DNA from: an uncultured Dehalococcoidia bacterium
Lineage (GTDB): Bacteria > Chloroflexota > Dehalococcoidia > SM23-28-2 > RBG-16-64-32
Length of the DNA stretch: 64,000 nt
Reading direction: 5' to 3'
NCBI GenBank assembly: GCA_964558415.1
Contig: CAZLDI010000003.1
Location: 136,627 to 200,626 of the forward strand
Both the position numbers and the translations under genes were made by a program. This document shows, one piece after another, positions 3,046 through 45,249 of the stretch (position 1 is its first letter; each line of letters starts with the position of its first letter). The notes below the pieces were generated by a model that did not search any database, was not told where the DNA came from, and saw only the letters and a program-made list of their open reading frames with translations.

Positions 3046-3088
3046 TCGGGCCCCCTGCCTCCGCGCATTCAGGAGGAGGTATGACACC

Positions 3089-4102
3089 TTGAGGACGCGA
3101 ATCGCCAACCCCCTGTGGCTCGTGCTTGCGATCGCGCTGGCGTCGCTCGCTTTGCTATCCGCCTGCGACTCCGACGGCGAGGAAGGCGCACGCCAGCCCA
3201 CTGACCGCTCTTCGACGCCGACCACCACCACCGCTACCCCGGCCACCTTCGATTGCGACGCAGATTATCCCGGCAGCGCGGCGGACCCGGCGACGTTCCC
3301 TATCGAGATCGAAGACAGCTCGGGTGCCGCAGTCACGTTCGAACGGCCGCCGTCCCGCATCGTTTCGCTGTCGGCGGCGCACACGGAGATCTTCTACGCG
3401 ATTGGCGCCGGTGGACAGATTGCGGCGGCGGACAACTTCTCTGACTGCCCGAAGGCGGCCGAGGCGCTCGAGCATCTCGACTCCTTCGCGCCAAGCGCCG
3501 AGGCGATCATCGCGCTGGAGCCTGACCTGGTGCTGCTCTTCTTCGACCCGGGCGACCTGAGGACGTCGCTGGAGGCAACCGGCTTGAAGGTCGTCTTGTT
3601 CGACTCCCCCGCGTCGATCCGGGGAGTTTACGAGCAGATCGACCTGCTGGGCCAGATCAGCGGTCACGTGGAAGAGGCAGCGAACCTTGTGGCTTCGATG
3701 CAAGCCGGAATCGAAGGCATCGTCGAGTCGCTGGGCGACCGCGCCGGCCCGACGGTGTTCCATGAGGGCGACAACACGTTCTTCAGCGCCGGCCCGGGCA
3801 GCTTCGTCGGCGACCTGTACGACACCCTCCGCGCGGAGAATATCGCGAACGCCACCGGCGAGCCCTTCCCGCAGCTCACTCAAGAGGCGATCATCGCCGC
3901 CGCGCCGGAGGTCATCATCCTGGCGGACGAGGATGCCGGCGAGACGGCGGAGACAGTGAAGGCTCGGCCCGGCTGGGACTCGATCCCGGCGGTCCAGAAC
4001 GGCCGCATTTACACGATCGATCCGAACATCATCAGCCGGCCAGGGCCCCGGCTGGTTGAGGCTCTCGAAACACTGGCCGGCTTCCTGTACAGGGAGAGCT
4101 GA
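3089..4102 (+). CDS. btuF: ABC transporter periplasmic binding lipoprotein, cobalamin/iron-siderophore class (BtuF-like)
   Basis: It has a lipoprotein signal (LALLSAC) and the fold-class features of a B12/Fe3+-hydroxamate binding protein. It is first gene after the B12 riboswitch, with a TTG start and an AGGAGG RBS. Confidence 0.75.
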   Translation: MRTRIANPLWLVLAIALASLALLSACDSDGEEGARQPTDRSSTPTTTTATPATFDCDADYPGSAADPATFPIEIEDSSGAAVTFERPPSRIVSLSAAHTEIFYAIGAGGQIAAADNFSDCPKAAEALEHLDSFAPSAEAIIALEPDLVLLFFDPGDLRTSLEATGLKVVLFDSPASIRGVYEQIDLLGQISGHVEEAANLVASMQAGIEGIVESLGDRAGPTVFHEGDNTFFSAGPGSFVGDLYDTLRAENIANATGEPFPQLTQEAIIAAAPEVIILADEDAGETAETVKARPGWDSIPAVQNGRIYTIDPNIISRPGPRLVEALETLAGFLYRES

Positions 4103-4107
4103 ACGGC

Positions 4108-5202
4108 GTGGACGTACTCCGCCGCTCGCTGATGGTCAGCGCCGAAGCGGATGCGCTGCCAGGCCTGCGCCGCCCCTCCCTGCCACCGCGGCTGGCGCTC
4201 GGCGCGCTTGCGCTCCTCGGCGCCGCGGTAATCGGAGTCGCGCTCGGCCCGACAAGCGTCCCGCTCGATGCGACAGTGCGGATACTGCTGTCGCATCTGC
4301 CGGGCGTCGGGCTGGCCGAAGACGTCCCCGCTAGCTGGCAGAACATCATCTGGCAGCTGCGGCTTCCGCGCGTCCTCCTGGCAGGCGTGGCCGGGGCGAC
4401 GCTGGCGATGGCGGGGGCCACTTACCAGGGCGTGTTTCGCAACCCCCTGGCGGACCCGTATCTCATCGGCGTCGCCACCGGCGCCAACCTCGGTGCGACC
4501 ATCGTGTTGGTGTCTGACGTGAACGTCGCCTGGCACGGGCTGAGCGTCCTACCGCTGGCTGCCTTCGCCGGAGCGCTGATCTCCGTCGTCGCGGTGTACG
4601 GGATAGCGCGCGCCGGGAGCACGGCCTCATCGACGACGCTGATCCTCGCCGGCGTCGCGCTGTCGTCACTGTCAACGGCGATCACGTCATACCTGATGCT
4701 CCAGAGCACAACGAACACCACGCAAGTGTTCGCCGTCGTGCTCGGCGGGTTCAACACCGCATCGTGGGTGAAGCTGGCCTGGGTGCTGCCGTACGCGCTC
4801 CCCGCGGCGATCGTGGTGCTGATGCACGGTCGCATCTTGAACGTGCTCAGCCTGGACGAAGAGCAGGCGCGGCACCTGGGCGTGGACGTCGAACGGACGA
4901 AGCTGCTGCTGTTGGGCGCGGCGTCGCTCGCCGCGGCGGCGGCCGTCTCGGTCAGCGGGACGATCGGCTTTGTCGGCCTCATCGTCCCTCACGCTGTGCG
5001 GATGGTCTGGGGTTCGGACAACCGCCAGCTACTCCCGCTGGTGCTGCTGCTGGGCGCTGCCTTCCTGATCTGCGCGGACCTGGGCGCGAGGACGCTGGAC
5101 CGCGGCGAAGAGATACCGGTGGGGATCATCACCTCCTTCTGTGGGGTGCCATTCTTTCTGTACCTCCTGCGCCGGTCCAGGGGCGGCTACTCTCTGCCAT
5201 GA
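4108..5202 (+). CDS. btuC: FecCD-family ABC permease (BtuC-like)
   Basis: It is a 364-aa polytopic membrane protein with the typical FecCD-family GxxLxxAG region (LAGVAGATLAMAGATYQG). Confidence 0.8.
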   Translation: MDVLRRSLMVSAEADALPGLRRPSLPPRLALGALALLGAAVIGVALGPTSVPLDATVRILLSHLPGVGLAEDVPASWQNIIWQLRLPRVLLAGVAGATLAMAGATYQGVFRNPLADPYLIGVATGANLGATIVLVSDVNVAWHGLSVLPLAAFAGALISVVAVYGIARAGSTASSTTLILAGVALSSLSTAITSYLMLQSTTNTTQVFAVVLGGFNTASWVKLAWVLPYALPAAIVVLMHGRILNVLSLDEEQARHLGVDVERTKLLLLGAASLAAAAAVSVSGTIGFVGLIVPHAVRMVWGSDNRQLLPLVLLLGAAFLICADLGARTLDRGEEIPVGIITSFCGVPFFLYLLRRSRGGYSLP

Positions 5203-7340: not shown

Positions 7341-8041
7341 TCCCGGTCTCCGACTCCCCGCAGTCCCGCACCTTCCCCTACGTCAACGTCGCGCTCATCG
7401 TTTCCTCCGTCCTTGTCTTTCTGTACGAATTGACGCTCTCGTTGGCCGACGTCAATCGCTTCTACTTCGACCACGGCGTCGTGCCACGCCAGCTCGTCGA
7501 CTGGCTGGAGGACCCATCAGGCGTCACGGAGCCGCTGACCGTGGTGACCTCGGCGTTTGTGCACGGTGGCTGGCTGCACCTCGTGGGGAACATGCTCTAC
7601 CTCTGGGTGTTTGGCGACAACGTCGAGGACGCGCTGGGCCACGTCAAGTACGGAGCGTTCTACGTCGTGTCGGCGACCGGCGCGGTGGCGCTACAGGTGG
7701 CGGTGGACACCAACGAAGTGATCCCGATGGTCGGCGCGAGCGGCGCGATCGCAGGAGTGATGGGCGCCTACCTCGTCCTCTACCCGACGGCCAGGGTGAA
7801 CACGTTGATCTGGTTCTTCCCGGTGCCCGTGCCTGCCGTCGTTCTGATCGGCGTCTGGTTCTTGATGCAGCTCCTCAGCGGCACAGCGGCTCTCGGCGGC
7901 GACACGCTGTCAGAGCAGGCTGTCGCCTTCTGGGCGCATGTGGGCGGGTTCGTCACCGGCTTCGCGATAGTCCTGGGCGCGCGTCCGTTCATTCGCGTCC
8001 GGCCGCTGCACGCGCGCCGACGCCGGACGGATATGTGGTGA
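7337..8041 (+). CDS. Rhomboid family intramembrane serine protease
   Basis: The GASGAIAGVMGAY catalytic Ser motif, the HGGWLHLxxNM motif and a later His are present. The start is uncertain: a TTG at 7337 is chosen just after the upstream stop, while the ORF-track ATG at 7250 would overlap the preceding gene. Confidence 0.75.
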   Translation: MIPVSDSPQSRTFPYVNVALIVSSVLVFLYELTLSLADVNRFYFDHGVVPRQLVDWLEDPSGVTEPLTVVTSAFVHGGWLHLVGNMLYLWVFGDNVEDALGHVKYGAFYVVSATGAVALQVAVDTNEVIPMVGASGAIAGVMGAYLVLYPTARVNTLIWFFPVPVPAVVLIGVWFLMQLLSGTAALGGDTLSEQAVAFWAHVGGFVTGFAIVLGARPFIRVRPLHARRRRTDMW

Positions 8042-8081
8042 GCGGGCATCGCAGCGGGTGGCGATCTAGTGCCCATCAGCA

Positions 8082-8109
8082 GGGGCGCGTCATGATGCGC
8101 CCCTACGCC
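8082..8109. repeat. REP-like GC-rich hairpin palindrome (copy 1), GGGGCGCGTCATGATGCGCCCCTACGCC
   Basis: It is a near-perfect inverted repeat (stem GGGGCGC / GCGCCCC around a GTCATGAT loop) located about 80 nt upstream of the RAYT start. Confidence 0.7.
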
Positions 8110-8186
8110 GCGCATCCACTCGCCTGCTTGCCAAGGGTGACATCGGGACGTTGCATCTTCTGTGGACCGTCATTACGGTGGGCGTC

Positions 8187-8780
8187 ATGCGATACGATCC
8201 GCGAATACATCAGCGGCGATCTGTCCGCCTCCCATACTATGATTACCGCTCGAACGGGGCATACTTCGTCACAATCTGCACGCATCAACGAGAGGCTTTG
8301 TTCAATGACCACAGGTTCAAAGCAGCGACCGAAGATTCGTGGTGCGCCATCCCGCGCCATTATCCGCAGGCGGAGATCGACGAGTTCATCGTTATGCCCA
8401 ACCACGTTCACGGAATCATTCGGATTCACTGCGCAACCACCGTAGGGGCGCGTCATGATGCGCCCCTACGCCCCGAAATCCCCAGAGCCTCCGTTCTTCA
8501 GCGTCGCTCATTGGGCGCAATCGTTCTGCAATTCAAGTCGGCATCCGCTAAGCGAATCAACGAACTGAGGTCTAACCCGGGCGGCCGGGTCTGGCAGCGC
8601 AATTATTACGAGCGTGTATTGCGAGACGAGAGGGAACTGGACGCGGCGCGGGATTACATCCTGGATAACCCACGAAAGTGGGACGACGACATCAACAACC
8701 CGAAGAACATCCATCGTCTGGGGGTTCCGAAACGCCGAGGTGGGTTCTCCAGCGAAACGCAACGGTCCGGCAAGCGGTAA
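8187..8780 (+). mobile_element. REP-associated tyrosine transposase (RAYT, IS200/IS605-like Y1 transposase)
   Basis: The HuH motif NHVHGII, a C-terminal WQRNYYER catalytic-Tyr region and the N-terminal YFVTICTHQRE block are present. An alternative ATG start lies at 8151. Confidence 0.75.
8442..8471. repeat. REP-like hairpin palindrome (copy 2), CGTAGGGGCGCGTCATGATGCGCCCCTACG, embedded in-frame in the RAYT gene
   Basis: A 28-nt core is identical to copy 1 and has a longer 11-bp stem. It is translated as VGARHDAPLR within a roughly 15-aa insertion between the HuH motif and the conserved K/R-rich helix. Confidence 0.7.
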
Positions 8781-8893
8781 GTGGTGTCAGAGCGCATCAT
8801 TGACGTGCCCCCCCCCCCTCATTGACAACCCTCCGGCGCGGGTGTAGCTTTCGCTTATCCGCAGGCATATCGCGACGCAGGGGAGGTCTCACC

Positions 8894-9979
8894 ATGGCTA
8901 TCGATGTTGACGTACTGCAGAAGCTGAGCACTGAGGAGGACCTGCCCGAGCTTGACCTGAGCTGGCTGCGTCCGGACGACCACGAGAAGGTGGAGCGCGT
9001 CACGGCCGGCCGCCGCGGGATGACGCTGGACGAGATCGAGCGCGGGCGCGAGGTGCCTGCGCACGTGAGCGCCAACACCATCCGCCCCCGCGACGCGCGC
9101 GAGCGGCCCGACGCGCCGCGCACCGGCCAGTACTACTCGGATAAGGCGGACGTGTGGTCGGACAACTCGCGGCTGCTGTACGAGGAGGCGGTCCAGCGCC
9201 AGTGGTCTTCGGCCACGGACATCCCCTGGCACACGATCGAGCCGCTGCCGGACGACCTGGAGCGCGCGATGTGCCAGCTCTGCACCTTCTTGACCGAGGT
9301 CGAGTTCATCGCCGGGGACGCGCCGGCGCAGTGGCTGCGCAAGATCCCGAACGACTACTACGAGACGAAGCTGTTCCTCCTTACGCAGATCATGGATGAG
9401 GCGCGCCACCTGGATGTCTTCCGCAAGCGCGCCTTCGCCAACGGCGGCGGGCTGCTCTCCGAGAGCCAGTCCGGCCCCTCTCTGCGCATCATCCTGGACG
9501 CGAAGGACTTCACCGAGATGTCCGCGATCATGCACGTCTTCGCGGAGGGGTTCGTGCAGAGCCTCTTCCGCACCGGCGAACTGGTCTCCTTCAACGAGGC
9601 AGAGAAGACGATCTACCGTCTCTGCGCGCAGGACGAGTCACGGCACCTGGGCTTCGGCGTGATGCACCTGAAGTACATCCTGGAGAACGAGCCGGAGCGC
9701 CGGGAGGAGCTGCACCACTACCTTGACCAGGTCGAGGGCCCGCTCTCGCTGGACATCACGCAGGGGATCAGTGCCACGACGCCCTTCTTCGACGAGGCGG
9801 TGATGATCCTGGCCGGCGGCGGGCTGAAGAACGTCGACGTGGGGATGCAGAAGCTGATGGACATCCGCAAGAAGCAGGTGAACGAGTACATGCACCGCCT
9901 CGAGGTCGCCGGCCTCGGCGACCGCCGCGACCGCATGAACCCGTTCTTCCGCTCGCTGCTGGACCCGCCGCGGAATTAG
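8894..9979 (+). CDS. Ferritin-like diiron-carboxylate protein, ligand-complete (candidate catalytic alpha subunit; acyl-ACP-desaturase-like motif spacing)
   Basis: TEVE...MDEARH...FAEG...QDESRH gives E/ExxH/E/ExxH with spacings of about 35/49/31 residues. The start is placed at the ATG after a GGAGG-like site; the ORF track gives 8822. Confidence 0.55.
   Translation: MAIDVDVLQKLSTEEDLPELDLSWLRPDDHEKVERVTAGRRGMTLDEIERGREVPAHVSANTIRPRDARERPDAPRTGQYYSDKADVWSDNSRLLYEEAVQRQWSSATDIPWHTIEPLPDDLERAMCQLCTFLTEVEFIAGDAPAQWLRKIPNDYYETKLFLLTQIMDEARHLDVFRKRAFANGGGLLSESQSGPSLRIILDAKDFTEMSAIMHVFAEGFVQSLFRTGELVSFNEAEKTIYRLCAQDESRHLGFGVMHLKYILENEPERREELHHYLDQVEGPLSLDITQGISATTPFFDEAVMILAGGGLKNVDVGMQKLMDIRKKQVNEYMHRLEVAGLGDRRDRMNPFFRSLLDPPRN
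9949..9979. repeat. Direct repeat copy 1 (CCGCTCGCTGCTGGACCCGCCGCGGAATTAG) encoding the C-terminus RSLLDPPRN*
   Basis: It matches 10421-10451 at 31 of 33 positions, and both mismatches are synonymous. Confidence 0.8.
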
Positions 9980-10112
9980 GGCGGGCGATCCGCGCCCAAT
10001 ACTTTTCGACGAATCGCCCAGATGCGCCTAAGCTTCGACACGCCCACCGCGGATGGAATCAATGCGCGTCGCAAGTATTCTGTGATAACACGTATCGTAT
10101 GATAGGTAGGCT

Positions 10113-10451
10113 ATGAGTTTCGGTGAGTTGTTGGCCGTTGTTCTAGTTTACGGCACCCCTTTGGGCGTCTCCCTTGTTGTTGGCTACCGCGTGAGTCGGC
10201 TTCTACCGCAGCGGATACTTGGCGCCCTGGCAAGCGGGTTAGCTGCTCTCGCTGCGTACACGCTGTTCATTGCAGCGTTAGCGATCATCATTGACGTTAC
10301 CACTGAGGACACCGGTGATTTCCCGCAATGGTTCTACGTGGCCTCAATACTCGTGCTAGCCTCTCTGCCCCTCTTCCTTGCAGGGACGGTCGTGGGATGG
10401 TTCGGAGCGAAGCGAAGTCACCGCTCGCTGCTCGACCCGCCGCGGAACTAG
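10113..10451 (+). CDS. Small hydrophobic membrane protein (3 predicted TM) inside a lower-GC insertion
   Basis: It is a 112-aa ORF with hydrophobic segments. It lies in a roughly 470-bp segment whose GC is clearly below the surroundings, and its last 10 codons come from the direct repeat. Confidence 0.45.
   Translation: MSFGELLAVVLVYGTPLGVSLVVGYRVSRLLPQRILGALASGLAALAAYTLFIAALAIIIDVTTEDTGDFPQWFYVASILVLASLPLFLAGTVVGWFGAKRSHRSLLDPPRN
10421..10451. repeat. Direct repeat copy 2
   Basis: See copy 1. Confidence 0.8.
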
Positions 10452-10618
10452 GGGATAGGTCGGAATGGTTCGGCCAGCCCGCTATGGCCTAGGCCTTCAA
10501 TTCCTTAGCGCCCGCTAAGTTACCCCCTTGACTCGCGCGTCGCCCTGTGGCTAAATGAGGGATGCTCTCCCCGCGAAGGGGGCGCGAATCCCGGTCCTGA
10601 CCAGAAGGAGAACCGCCC

Positions 10619-12049
10619 ATGGCTGAAACAGCCACCGACATCCCCGCGGACCTGGCGCAAGTCGCCGAGGAGAAGGGCATCCCGCCGGACCTCGTGCGCC
10701 GCGCGCTGGCGCTCGGCTTCCCCGCAGATGCGATCAAGATGCAGCTCAGCCAGCCCGACGCCAGCGCCGAAGCCGCCGAGCTGTTCATCAGCGAGCAGGA
10801 GCGCATCCGCGCCGGCGGCGAGATCACGCTGTCACCGGAGCTGGCTGAGCTCGCGCGCGAACACGACTGGCCGGAGGCGCTCGTGAAACGCGCGCTGAAG
10901 CTGGGCGCGCCGGTGGAGATGATCACGAACCAGATCAAGGCCGGCGTGCGGCCCGACCAGGCGGAAGGCTTCATCCGCCAGCAGGAGATCGCGCGCGACC
11001 AGGGGGTTGAGGCGACGCTGGACCTCTCCTGGATGCATGTCCCGACGGAGTGGGGGATACGGGTGCGCCCGGGCAAGAGGGGCCTCACCGTCGGCATGCT
11101 GAACGTCAGCACCTATGCGGACATCCCTGATTTCTGGCCCCACCAGAGCGAGATGCCGCGCGGCGCCTACCCGCTGCCCGGCGTGCCCGCGATGGGCTAC
11201 AGCATCTACGAGAAGGCGGAGCTGTGGTCCGAGAACTCCGCGGACCTCTACGAAGAAGCGATCCAGCGGCGCTGGCGGCCCTCCACCGACGTCAACTGGA
11301 ACAGCATCGAGCCGCTGCCGGATGTGATCGAGAAGGCGATGTGCCAGCTCTGCACCTTTCTCTGCGAGAAGGGGCTCCTGGAAGGCGACATCGTCGGGCG
11401 CTGGCTGCCGGAGATGTCTTACGGCTACCACGAGGTCAAGCTCTACCTTTCGACCGCGGCGTTCGACTACGCGCACCAGTTCGAGGTGTTCCGCAAGCGC
11501 GCGATGAGCAACGGCGGCGGCATGGGCCTCCAGAGCCCCGGCTACTTCCACCGCGCGATCATCGACGCGCGCGCCTGGACGGAGACGTCCGTGCTCTCCC
11601 ACATCCTCTCGAACAGCCATGTGATGGGGCTTTACGAGATCGGTCTCTACGTGGCGCACAACGAGGCGGAGCACCAGATCTTCAGCTACTGCATGCAGGA
11701 CACCGCGCGCCAGATCGCCTACGGCATTCAGCACCTCAAGTACTTCCTGCTGCGCCACGACGCACGGCGCCCTGAGGTCCAGAACTACCTGAACAAAGGC
11801 GAAGCGGTGTTCAACTTCGAGTCGGAGCGCGACACGCCGATCCGAGAGGCGCTGATCATCCTGCTGGGCGGCGGCATCGAGAAGGACCAGCTTCTGGACG
11901 GAACGCGCAAGCTGGAGTACTTTAAGCAGCGCTGGGTGCGCGCCTACGTGTCGCGTCTGGCAGCCGGGGGCATAGACCGCGCGGATAAGCTGCACCCGTC
12001 CCTCAAGAAATACGTCGACGAGCCGGCGGCGGCCCAGGCCGCAGCATAA
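10619..12049 (+). CDS. Ferritin-like paralog lacking all diiron ligands (candidate structural beta subunit) with an N-terminal tandem-repeat helical domain
   Basis: It is a clear paralog of the 8894-9979 protein (shared blocks LYEEA[IV]QR, SIEPLPD, AMCQLCTFL, VFRKRA.NGGG, HLKY). The ExxH sites are replaced (DYAHQ, QDTARQ) and the carboxylates are replaced (SNS). Two ~45-aa N-terminal repeats have the pattern (IP.DLVrRALaLGfP). AAGGAG sits 8 nt before the ATG. Confidence 0.55.
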   Translation: MAETATDIPADLAQVAEEKGIPPDLVRRALALGFPADAIKMQLSQPDASAEAAELFISEQERIRAGGEITLSPELAELAREHDWPEALVKRALKLGAPVEMITNQIKAGVRPDQAEGFIRQQEIARDQGVEATLDLSWMHVPTEWGIRVRPGKRGLTVGMLNVSTYADIPDFWPHQSEMPRGAYPLPGVPAMGYSIYEKAELWSENSADLYEEAIQRRWRPSTDVNWNSIEPLPDVIEKAMCQLCTFLCEKGLLEGDIVGRWLPEMSYGYHEVKLYLSTAAFDYAHQFEVFRKRAMSNGGGMGLQSPGYFHRAIIDARAWTETSVLSHILSNSHVMGLYEIGLYVAHNEAEHQIFSYCMQDTARQIAYGIQHLKYFLLRHDARRPEVQNYLNKGEAVFNFESERDTPIREALIILLGGGIEKDQLLDGTRKLEYFKQRWVRAYVSRLAAGGIDRADKLHPSLKKYVDEPAAAQAAA

Positions 12050-40846: not shown

Positions 40847-42340
40847 TTAGACCTCCTGACCTCTCCTCAGCAACCGTCCCGAGTGCAGCGCCGTCTGACG
40901 TCCACGCTCCGCGGCTACCTCTCCGTTCACGACGACGTAGTCGATCCCCTCGGGGTACTGTCGAGGATCCTCGTACGTCGCCCGGTCGACGATCCGGTCC
41001 GGATCGAACACAACTATGTCCGCAAACCAGCCCTCCCGTAGTTGGCCGCGCTTCGGCAGATTCATGCGCTGCGCGGGAAGCGAGGTCATCTTCCGCACGC
41101 CTTCTTCGACGGTGAAGAGACGGTGGTCTCGCACATACGGCCCAAGCACGCGCGGGAACGTCCCGTAGAGCCGCGGGTGCGGCTTTCCGGTAGGTGAGGG
41201 GATGCCGTCCGAACCGATCATGCACTGAGGGTGCGACATCACGCGTTGGACGTCGGGCTCGTCCATGGCCCAGAAGACCGCCACCGCGCCGGGGTCCTCG
41301 GAGACGACGCGCCGGCCGGCTTCCATGGGCGAGACCCCCAGCATCTCACCAAGCTCGGTCAGCGACTTGCCTTCCCACTCGGGCCGTCCCCGCACGCTGG
41401 CGGCCATCACGCCGTCTATGTCCCGGCCTGCGGCCTGGCCAATGACGATCGCCATTATCGTGCTGGCTGCCGTGTACGGATACGCGTCGAACGTCACGTC
41501 CAAGCCGCCATCGCGCTCTCGCTCGATGAGCGCGATGGAGTCCACAGTCTTGCCGAAGTTAGGCGGGTCAGAGGCTTTGTGGTGCGATATCTCGACCGGC
41601 AGCCCCGCCTCGCGACCGATCGTGATCGCCTCAACTACGGCTTCCAGCAGTCGTTCGGACTCGTTCCGGATGTGGCTCATGTAAATGCCGCCGTGCTTCG
41701 CGGCGCCCTTCGCCAGCTCGATGATCTCCCCAGTGGCCGCGAAGGCGCCGGGAGGGTAGATCAGGCCCGTCGAAAGACCGAGAGCGCCGGCAGTCATACC
41801 CTCCTCCACGTCTTCGCGCATCGCCGCCAGCTCGCGGCCGTCCGGCGCGCGCCGCTCCATGCGGAGGTGGCGGTGCCGCACCGGGCCGTGCGGCACGAAG
41901 CAGCCTACGTTGATGGCGGGACGGGCCTTCGCCACCGCAGACATATACTCGCCGAACGTCTGCCAGGTAATCTCGGGGAGAGAGCCGAGGACGTTCTGCA
42001 CGCCGGGAATCGTCAGCGTGCGGCTCTCGTCCAGGGGCGCCACGCCCGCGCCGCAGTTGCCGACGATATCCGTGGTGACGCCCTGCATCAGTTTGAAGTC
42101 CATCGGCGTGCTCAGCACCGCTGCGTCGTCATGCGCGTGGACATCAATGAAGCCGGGCGCCACGCTCAGCCCGGAAACATCCACTACGCGCCTGGCCGCG
42201 CCCAGATCGTCGCCGATCGCCACGATGCGGTCGCCGCGTATCGCGATATCAGCGGGGAAGGAAGGGGCGCCGGTACCGTCGATGATCGCGCCGTTGCGGA
42301 TTAGAAGATCGAACTCGGCATCGGGCATGAGTGGCTGCAA
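40847..42340 (-). CDS. N-acyl-D-amino-acid deacylase (D-aminoacylase, amidohydrolase family)
   Basis: The N-terminus LIRNGAIIDGTG...GFIDVHAHDD and its 497-aa length fit the D-aminoacylase family. Confidence 0.85.
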   Translation of the reverse strand: MQPLMPDAEFDLLIRNGAIIDGTGAPSFPADIAIRGDRIVAIGDDLGAARRVVDVSGLSVAPGFIDVHAHDDAAVLSTPMDFKLMQGVTTDIVGNCGAGVAPLDESRTLTIPGVQNVLGSLPEITWQTFGEYMSAVAKARPAINVGCFVPHGPVRHRHLRMERRAPDGRELAAMREDVEEGMTAGALGLSTGLIYPPGAFAATGEIIELAKGAAKHGGIYMSHIRNESERLLEAVVEAITIGREAGLPVEISHHKASDPPNFGKTVDSIALIERERDGGLDVTFDAYPYTAASTIMAIVIGQAAGRDIDGVMAASVRGRPEWEGKSLTELGEMLGVSPMEAGRRVVSEDPGAVAVFWAMDEPDVQRVMSHPQCMIGSDGIPSPTGKPHPRLYGTFPRVLGPYVRDHRLFTVEEGVRKMTSLPAQRMNLPKRGQLREGWFADIVVFDPDRIVDRATYEDPRQYPEGIDYVVVNGEVAAERGRQTALHSGRLLRRGQEV

Positions 42341-42401
42341 CGTAGCAGGCGGCGGGACGAGATGTCAATCGTCGATCTGCACGGGGCCGGCGGCCGGTTG
42401 A

Positions 42402-45198: not shown

Positions 45199-45249
45199 TG
45201 CGGCTGCAACGTAGCAGGACAGGGACGCGCAGTCAACGCGCGGTGGCGG

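Follow-up and report, generated by a model that had tools for sequence, protein, structure and literature searches.

How does a gene come to share its very end with an unrelated neighbour? The question is raised by a stretch of DNA from an uncultured Dehalococcoidia bacterium (assembly GCA_964558415.1, contig CAZLDI010000003.1, positions 136,627-200,626, forward strand). The window, as we call this entire stretch of 64,000 nucleotides (nt), contains two paralogous genes, alpha and beta, and between them a small open reading frame (ORF) for a membrane protein, the last codons of which repeat those of alpha. Window coordinates count from its first letter. A first-pass annotation of the window had read the arrangement either as a cassette inserted at the 3' end of alpha or as a functional C-terminal tag. 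Comparison with related loci reveals an insertion. It also reveals two features missed by that annotation: the small ORF is chimeric, its own end having been lost, and gene ends of the alpha family in other lineages show this architecture again.

Insertion behind the alpha stop codon

Copy 1 of the direct repeat, CCGCTCGCTGCTGGACCCGCCGCGGAATTAGGG, consists of the 31-nt end of alpha and 2 further nt (Table 1). Copy 2 follows with a period of 472 nt, so that 439 nt of unique DNA separate the two, and is identical with copy 1 at 31 of 33 positions. Since the two ORFs share one frame across the repeat, both differences, CTG/CTC (Leu) and AAT/AAC (Asn), are synonymous for either protein. With up to 3 mismatches allowed, the 33-mer has only these two matches in 64 kb (0 expected, 100 shuffles). 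The repeat is thus just as first described, down to its synonymous differences. The shared C-terminus is real as well and is one residue longer than the SLLDPPRN noted before: alpha and the small ORF have nine residues, RSLLDPPRN, in common, an ending found on no further ORF in any of six frames of the window. No similarity extends past the 33 nt, as 9982-10420 and 10454-10892 reach no higher Smith-Waterman score than shuffled sequences do. This rules out an old tandem duplication of the 472-nt unit.

The intervening DNA had also been described as AT-richer than its flanks, and measurement agrees: its GC content is 56.3%, against a window mean of 64.5% (standard deviation of 300-nt windows, 3.7%), which places it in the lowest ~1% of 300-nt windows. 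GC content at third codon positions (GC3) is 0.655 in the small ORF, 0.92 in alpha, 0.91 in beta and 0.89-0.90 in the next two genes.

To find corresponding loci, alpha was queried against species-representative genomes and metagenomes. About 120 loci were retrieved, nearly all in Chloroflexota or Dehalococcoidia metagenome-assembled genomes. The empty site was defined by comparison with 11 orthologous rhomboid-alpha-beta loci whose alpha is 75-86% identical to that of the window; gene order in this closest clade is rhomboid protease, alpha, beta and a protein of 149 amino acids (aa). In all 11 loci, alpha and beta are adjacent, as the first-pass annotation had proposed to check, with a spacer of 162-175 nt and no small ORF. 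The gap in the window amounts to 639 nt, exactly 167 + 472. The 472-nt unit is therefore a lineage-specific insertion. The 165 nt after copy 2 are collinear with nine orthologous spacers, from the stop codon through the beta start. Since copy 1 is native on the left and copy 2 is native on the right, everything between them is extra. Insertion at the 3' end of alpha with duplication of its terminal 33 nt, as originally suggested, is thereby established. The same arrangement is present, without gaps, in a JGI contig (19 kb aligned, 99.93%) and in two Logan contigs (99.6% and 100%). A search of metagenome contigs for the empty-site pattern, copy 2 plus spacer, gave 0 matches, the source sample being seemingly absent from the collection.

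The small ORF has three hydrophobic segments by Kyte-Doolittle analysis, in agreement with its initial description as a protein with three transmembrane (TM) segments. In 2.7% of shuffles the frame remains open by chance. A word-indexed search of 5.8 billion proteins returned nothing but the protein itself, which is the sole member of its 90% cluster. Exhaustive HMMER search of 1.84 billion representatives detected homologues P0003 (E = 3.4e-10, 45% identity), P0004 (1.5e-9, 46%), P0005 and P0006 (2.5e-4 and 3.4e-4); one further match was discarded as a spurious repetitive protein. A subsequent profile search added P0007, so that the family comprises six of 5.8 billion proteins, the window protein and five remote homologues.

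These homologues, 78-104 aa long, have the three hydrophobic segments in common with the window protein, and likewise a conserved motif, DYPDWFYVA. Past a conserved GW (replaced by GL in P0003), they continue for 5-18 residues; GARR, AKRQPD and HRSRSD are examples of the tails that precede the stop codon. The alpha-type tail is present on none of the five. The window protein tracks the family through GWFGAKRSH and then, 7 residues past GW, switches to RSLLDPPRN and the stop. It follows that the gene is genuine, foreign and chimeric: on arrival it lacked its own last codons and stop codon, and it uses the duplicated alpha end instead. On the side of alpha, orthologues end with F[RK][SA][LF]LDPP[RKA]N and the stop codon, and the LDPP.N ending is kept in alpha relatives down to ~55-63% identity; the LDPP[RKA]N tail is native to alpha. 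The first-pass annotation had asked whether ORF and repeat are conserved together in distant relatives, and the five homologues without the tail favour insertion.

Genes of the small family have GC3 of 0.60-0.67 in every host, compared with 0.75-0.89 for their neighbours, and the homologues sit in unrelated housekeeping contexts. The consistently low GC3 marks the small gene as an itinerant accessory gene. A phage or defence origin was considered and rejected, since the protein has no match in PHROGs and no credible one in PADLOC (only matches with E > 0.01, to transmembrane effector models), and viral contigs contain no match to the 30-nt repeat core, taken as degenerate at its two variable positions. 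At the locus of P0007 (L125), a 24-nt direct repeat (1983-2006 and 3639-3662, 22/24) brackets two other low-GC3 ORFs; its second copy lies 46 nt 5' of the small gene, beside rplC-rplD.

Table 1. Features of the alpha-beta region (window coordinates)
Feature	Position	Strand	Basis or remark
Alpha, ferritin-like diiron-carboxylate protein, 361 aa; native host gene and insertion target	8894-9979	+	GC3, synteny, ligand motifs
Direct repeat, copy 1	9949-9981	+	Last 10 alpha codons (from last base of the preceding Phe codon), stop codon and GG; joined to native alpha upstream
Inserted foreign DNA, 439 nt	9982-10420	+	131 nt of upstream region and body of the small ORF minus its own end; absent from all orthologous loci
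Terminator-like hairpin and T-rich run (weak)	9983-10007	+	Extreme left end of the insert; consensus scan
Chimeric gene for small membrane protein, 112 aa, 3 TM	10113-10451	+	Residues 1-103 foreign; residues 104-112 (RSLLDPPRN) and stop codon from duplicated alpha end
Direct repeat, copy 2	10421-10453	+	Continuous with native alpha-beta spacer on the right
Native spacer with conserved beta promoter region	10454-10618	+	Alignment with nine orthologous spacers; elements invariant or nearly so
Palindrome CTTAGC-N4-GCTAAG	10504-10519	+	Invariant in spacer alignment
-35 element TTGACT	10528-10533	+	TTGAC kept in orthologous spacers
-10 element CTAAAT	10551-10556	+	Conserved -10 GGCTAAATG in spacer alignment; ribosome-binding site also kept
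Beta, alpha paralogue (38% identity) with most metal ligands replaced	10619-12049	+	Synteny, ligand inspection

Recurrence at other alpha-family gene ends

We wondered if gene ends of this kind are repeated elsewhere. For 145 gene ends of the alpha and beta families, the final 45 nt (+5) were compared with the DNA downstream of them, and 769 gene ends of all families within the same 830 kb served as control. Besides the window, the screen revealed two further events (loci L070 and L018) and one tandem-paralogue pair. In the control, a repeated 3' end was found only at these three alpha ends and at tandem paralogues in L005 and L027. The three events at alpha thus compare with none among roughly 600 other gene ends.

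In L070 (Ga0114129_10006338), the alpha homologue ends with ...CAGTTCCTGGACAACTAGC (4060-4078), a perfect copy of which (19/19) is located at 4786-4804. The repeat brackets 707 nt with sodC, coding for Cu/Zn superoxide dismutase, and its own promoter-like upstream region. Relatives that are 8-10% away in alpha lack the insert and have about 72 nt instead; in L073, homology resumes exactly at the second copy. The sodC gene carries two frameshifts relative to its homologues and reads the duplicated tail out of frame; judged from an 83%-identical sodC, its native stop position falls 5 nt before the junction. Its best homologues are 82-83% identical and, where context is visible, not situated beside an alpha gene. 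In L018 (JBKKBW010000552.1), the last 31 nt of the alpha homologue (3076-3106) occur again at 3912-3941 (27/31 with one gap). Here the inserted gene, or cargo, codes for an alpha/beta-hydrolase, which continues in frame into the second copy and is stopped early by a CAG-to-TAG change.

A fourth event does not involve the coding end. In L076 (4123-5068), genes for MazE-type antitoxin and PIN toxin follow the alpha homologue between two copies of a 74-nt direct repeat (67/74), which consists of spacer sequence and includes a GC-rich hairpin.

In the three tail-duplicating events (window, L070 and L018), foreign DNA begins 2, 1 and 0 nt after the stop codon, respectively. The repeats of all four events (33, 19, 31 and 74 nt) each copy the local target, and their sequences, lengths and cargo differ from event to event. 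No common core was found among the repeats of window, L070 and L018. Terminator hairpins do not mark the breakpoints either: neither the first 45 nt of the inserts nor the native downstream DNA fold better than shuffles, with the exception of one REP-like (repetitive extragenic palindrome-like) hairpin after copy 2 in L018. The terminator-like element at the left end of the window insert likewise folds no better than shuffles (z = -1.1).

Further genes occupy the spacer behind alpha with no flanking repeat. These are DinB_2 (L048), ODP/MBL-fold (L057), DUF5615/PIN on the opposite strand (L045) and an AMP-binding enzyme (L046). The spacer downstream of alpha is a hot spot of gene gain. The closest orthologous loci (L001, 3693-3990, and L044, 3718-4010) contain about 125 extra nt straight after the alpha stop codon, with a 10-nt inverted repeat, AGCGCTGAGC / GCTCAGCGCT, at the limits of this extra DNA, which is a further small insertion or hairpin expansion in this place.

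Several other direct repeats were encountered. One candidate, a 21-mer repeat in alpha of L056 (1862-2063), was discarded as an assembly chimera, in which two alpha-family genes are joined at a shared 21-mer with NN; it is a caution for repeat-based inference from metagenome contigs. In L017, some 775 nt holding a PadR regulator gene as well as a partial ORF lie between the copies of a perfect 31-nt direct repeat (9817-9847 and 10623-10653). The repeated sequence represents codons 4-13 of a purC-like gene next to it, encoded on the minus strand; this geometry is unfit for simple target duplication. In the window itself, a perfect 17-nt direct repeat GGCTGCAACGTAGCAGG (42333-42349 and 45202-45218) brackets RecQ helicase and PNPOx-like genes; its length is borderline for chance given the amount of sequence screened.

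Origin of the insertion

We favour, with moderate confidence, the view that a single horizontally acquired gene together with its own upstream region was captured just after the alpha stop codon by recombinase-independent illegitimate recombination, in the course of which 31 + 2 nt were copied again. Its enzymology, donor and anchor, which copy is donor-derived and why the cargo is just complete are inferred.

Since the repeats copy the local target at varying length and the cargo is unrelated, the target is likely to have been duplicated during the event rather than brought in as an element-borne site. That foreign DNA always starts at the stop codon is expected if homology of donor and recipient ends there, the stop codon not being a junction. 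A block ~30-100 nt 5' of the alpha stop is 92% identical over 74 nt between clades with ~66% protein identity. With such a conserved 3' block in alpha and diverging spacers that hold varied accessory genes, the variant to be favoured is homology-facilitated illegitimate recombination (HFIR). Illegitimate and homology-facilitated illegitimate recombination at microhomologies are experimentally documented (PMC6382021; bioRxiv 10.1101/2023.11.22.568220).

In this variant, donor DNA would come from a related lineage that has the cargo downstream of its own alpha (alpha 3' part - spacer - cargo). The donor strand would pair with the recipient via the conserved 3' block of alpha. At the stop codon homology would end, and the heterologous stretch beyond it could not pair. 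The free end would then be joined or re-primed by microhomology 31 nt 5' of the stop codon, and the recipient tail would be copied twice. As a result, alpha would retain its conserved C-terminus, and the incoming ORF would read in frame into copy 2 and end in nine borrowed residues. Template switch or staggered break with fill-in after fragment capture would give the same product, and these variants are inseparable. Lineages with other cargo behind alpha (DinB_2, ODP/MBL, DUF5615/PIN, AMP-binding) could have served as donors. The small-gene homologue in L039 natively ends with ...CACCGCTCGC..., the same 10-mer that spans the right junction in the window, which hints at junction microhomology in an uncertain register.

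Several observations weigh against capture by illegitimate recombination. Cargo is co-oriented throughout the four events, and its end lies no further than about 15 nt from the natural stop codon. The only explanation we can offer for such just-complete cargo is selection for a whole gene combined with a steep penalty on heterologous length, and a dedicated mechanism would account for it more directly. The closest known homologue of the window cargo is 46% identical, and no donor sequence is known. The microhomology in L039 rests on one distant relative and requires a two-codon offset in ungapped alignment. A mosaic alpha with donor-derived 3' part gave no signal in L070 or the window, where the relatives are 8-15% divergent, too distant for its absence to count. 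The mismatch pattern of the repeat (copy 1 CTG...AAT, copy 2 CTC...AAC) fits reciprocal crossover as well as later substitutions. Finally, the experiments cited describe deletions or short patches, not duplications of 19-74 nt (PMC6382021; bioRxiv 10.1101/2023.11.22.568220).

Among known systems, these experimental ones are nonetheless among the closest. In HFIR and in double illegitimate recombination (DIR) or its short-patch form (SPDIR) during natural transformation, foreign DNA enters via one homologous anchor, or via microhomology on both sides, and a dedicated recombinase is not needed; as in the window, junctions are sharp, and where the donor gene is severed is arbitrary (PMC6382021; bioRxiv 10.1101/2023.11.22.568220). 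HFIR and DIR are, however, laboratory events in Acinetobacter, Streptococcus and Pseudomonas, usually with recipient deletions or patches of 3-100 bp, whereas here a gene-sized piece of 439 nt with target duplication of 33 nt is found in an uncultured member of Chloroflexota and recurs at one gene family. Insertions of outside DNA bracketed by short duplication are also known from template switching, that is, fork stalling and template switching (FoSTeS) or microhomology-mediated break-induced replication (MMBIR). In these mainly eukaryotic processes, a sequence from elsewhere is inserted and the site of exit and re-entry is duplicated. In bracketing outside DNA with a short duplication, they are like the insertion described here; to our knowledge, they have not been documented for horizontally acquired bacterial genes.

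A rather unlikely alternative is that the insert is a miniature non-autonomous integrative element, or what remains of a decayed larger island. The two 33-mers would then be attL and attR, formed by integration of a 472-nt circle that carried the small gene and a mimic of the alpha 3' end, with the recombinase encoded elsewhere. A direct repeat that equals the 3' end of the target gene and restores this gene is a hallmark of islands in gene 3' ends. Moreover, compared with outgroup states, the mismatches CTG...AAT / CTC...AAC are consistent with reciprocal crossover at some point from position 13 to position 28, and both the recurrence at alpha-family ends and the co-orientation of cargo look targeted. 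The Dehalococcoides ssrA islands offer a parallel from the same phylum: their repeats copy the target 3' end (20 bp), the target stays intact and GC content is low (PMC3146451). Some tandem ssrA islands are without an integration module (PMC3146451). Still, ssrA islands measure kilobases, carry or derive from a CcrB-like serine recombinase module and use one conserved site (PMC3146451), whereas the insert described here has 439 nt, no recombinase is seen and the repeats vary in sequence and length between lineages.

The machinery expected of such an element was looked for in vain. No integrase, serine recombinase or other recombinase is encoded in the insert or found among the Pfam-labelled called genes, which extend over about 57 kb (1.4-20.5 and 23.7-64 kb of the window, approximately). 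Terminal inverted repeats, arm-type repeats and dyad symmetry are missing from the insert, which is 439 nt long, and its ends fold no better than shuffles. The window contains no second copy of it, and nothing credible matches Rfam families in 7900-10800. The sole mobile-element gene (8187-8780) codes for a REP-associated tyrosine (Y1) transposase, RAYT. Involvement of RAYT and REPs was rejected, since 8082 and 8445 are the sole sites of the REP palindrome GGGGCGCGTCATGATGCGCCCC, which is found neither in nor beside the insert.

A mini-element would further have to bring a custom mimic of the host tail each time, given unrelated cargo and repeats made of each gene's own tail (33, 19 and 31 nt). 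Other inserts in the same spacer have no repeat, and the repeat core is unmatched in viral contigs. The site-specific flavour of the originally proposed cassette thus finds no footing in recombinase, terminal repeats, attC or second copy.

Integron cassettes are similar in that one small co-oriented ORF is added to an existing gene. Unlike them, the insert has no attC-like imperfect palindrome at its right end, a GTT core (of GTTRRRY) is present at neither junction, no intI is seen among the Pfam-labelled genes of the window, and the repeat is the coding end of a conserved syntenic gene. Transposons, too, are flanked by direct duplication of their target. Transposon duplications, however, are short and of fixed length (2-15 bp), and such elements come with terminal repeats, a transposase and multiple copies; for this insert, nothing of the kind was found. 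An identity as integron, miniature inverted-repeat transposable element or insertion sequence was discarded for lack of terminal inverted repeats and of attC-like structure.

It is conceivable, although unlikely, that the alpha-family gene end is a dedicated landing site for a target-duplicating 'gene-end capture' of Chloroflexota. Such a process, working with a recombinase in trans or coupled to replication, would add single co-oriented genes trimmed near their stop codon, regenerate the host tail and sometimes graft this tail onto the cargo.

Very unlikely, in our opinion, is that the cargo formerly separated two tandem alpha paralogues, the second of which survives as copy 2 only, a deletion having spared its final 33 nt and fused them to the cargo. 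Tandem alpha paralogues do occur in relatives (L005, L015), and their 3' ends also score as repeats (30/37 in L005). But 31/33 and 19/19 are far above identity between known tandem paralogues, the window gap is exactly native spacer plus 472 nt, and an exact deletion from the last codons of the cargo to 31 nt before the stop would be required in three lineages. This reading is unparsimonious.

A selected functional tag, for instance a signal for docking or sorting that is required or exploited by the membrane protein, is most improbable. The peptides are identical, with nucleotide differences that are synonymous only, the tail is strongly conserved in alpha, and by the positive-inside rule the tail of the membrane protein would lie in the cytoplasm, together with alpha. 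The C-terminal tail of R2 proteins, to which alpha is distantly related, is a docking peptide. Against this stand the five homologues without the tail, the absence of other window ORFs with this ending, the sodC of L070, which reads the tail out of frame, and the L018 cargo, from which a nonsense change removed it. That none of 9 codons changed nonsynonymously is a weak argument, as the neutral chance of this is about 0.1 by our rough estimate. The earlier suggestion of a tag is therefore not supported: the shared C-terminal peptide is a by-product, a scar of recombination.

An assembly artefact, whether by chimerism of the contig or by collapse of a circle at some shared k-mer, does have a real example in the comparison set (L056), but may safely be dismissed here, for the longest exact run within the repeat is 14 nt, below any assembler's k, and three further assemblies of the same population from other read sets agree base for base across both junctions.

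The native locus and what the insertion means

The start of alpha at 8894 follows from gene calls and the conserved N-terminus MAI... By inspection, alpha retains the E...EXXH...E...EXXH ligand pattern; it matches R2lox and VlmB-like proteins weakly only, and neither alpha nor beta matches any Pfam family. The original designation of both as diiron paralogs is correct for alpha but hardly for beta, which has Y, Q, N, T and Q at 5 of 6 canonical diiron ligand positions, again by inspection. Beta further bears a ~115-residue N-terminal extension relative to alpha and is probably a non-catalytic partner subunit.

The spacer preserved behind copy 2 holds the conserved promoter region of beta, and alpha and beta appear to be transcribed separately. 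In all orthologous spacers, the palindrome CTTAGC-N4-GCTAAG is located directly 5' of the conserved beta promoter (TTGAC-17 nt-CTAAAT); it looks like the operator of some regulator.

On the other side of alpha, the window contains a second lineage-specific insertion of low GC3 (0.667), at 8042-8820, which holds the RAYT gene. It sits between the rhomboid gene and the conserved promoter of alpha (TTGACA, 8822-8827), where orthologous loci have 40-270 nt. The REP is a near-perfect palindrome of 32 nt, found 5' of the RAYT gene (8081-8112) and within its ORF (8444-8475), where it is read in frame (...GARHDAPL...). This second REP falls between the HUH motif and the region of the catalytic Tyr, and the match to the NCBIfam model is split there. 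Sequence search of the PDB with RAYT gave no match.

A single event of the kind described here is a modest curiosity; its recurrence, pinned to the stop codon, is not fully explained. The locus provides a clean natural record of the gain of a single gene in a bacterium without mobile-element machinery, and demonstrates that such an event can make a chimeric protein by grafting the C-terminus of a neighbour onto the newcomer. On the practical side, it warns that identical C-terminal peptides on adjacent unrelated ORFs need not be tags. If diverged lineages exchange accessory genes that lie downstream of a conserved coding block and this block anchors the recombination, a phenomenon of the laboratory would become visible in nature. 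If, alternatively, these gene ends are targeted, the mechanism would be one so far undescribed.

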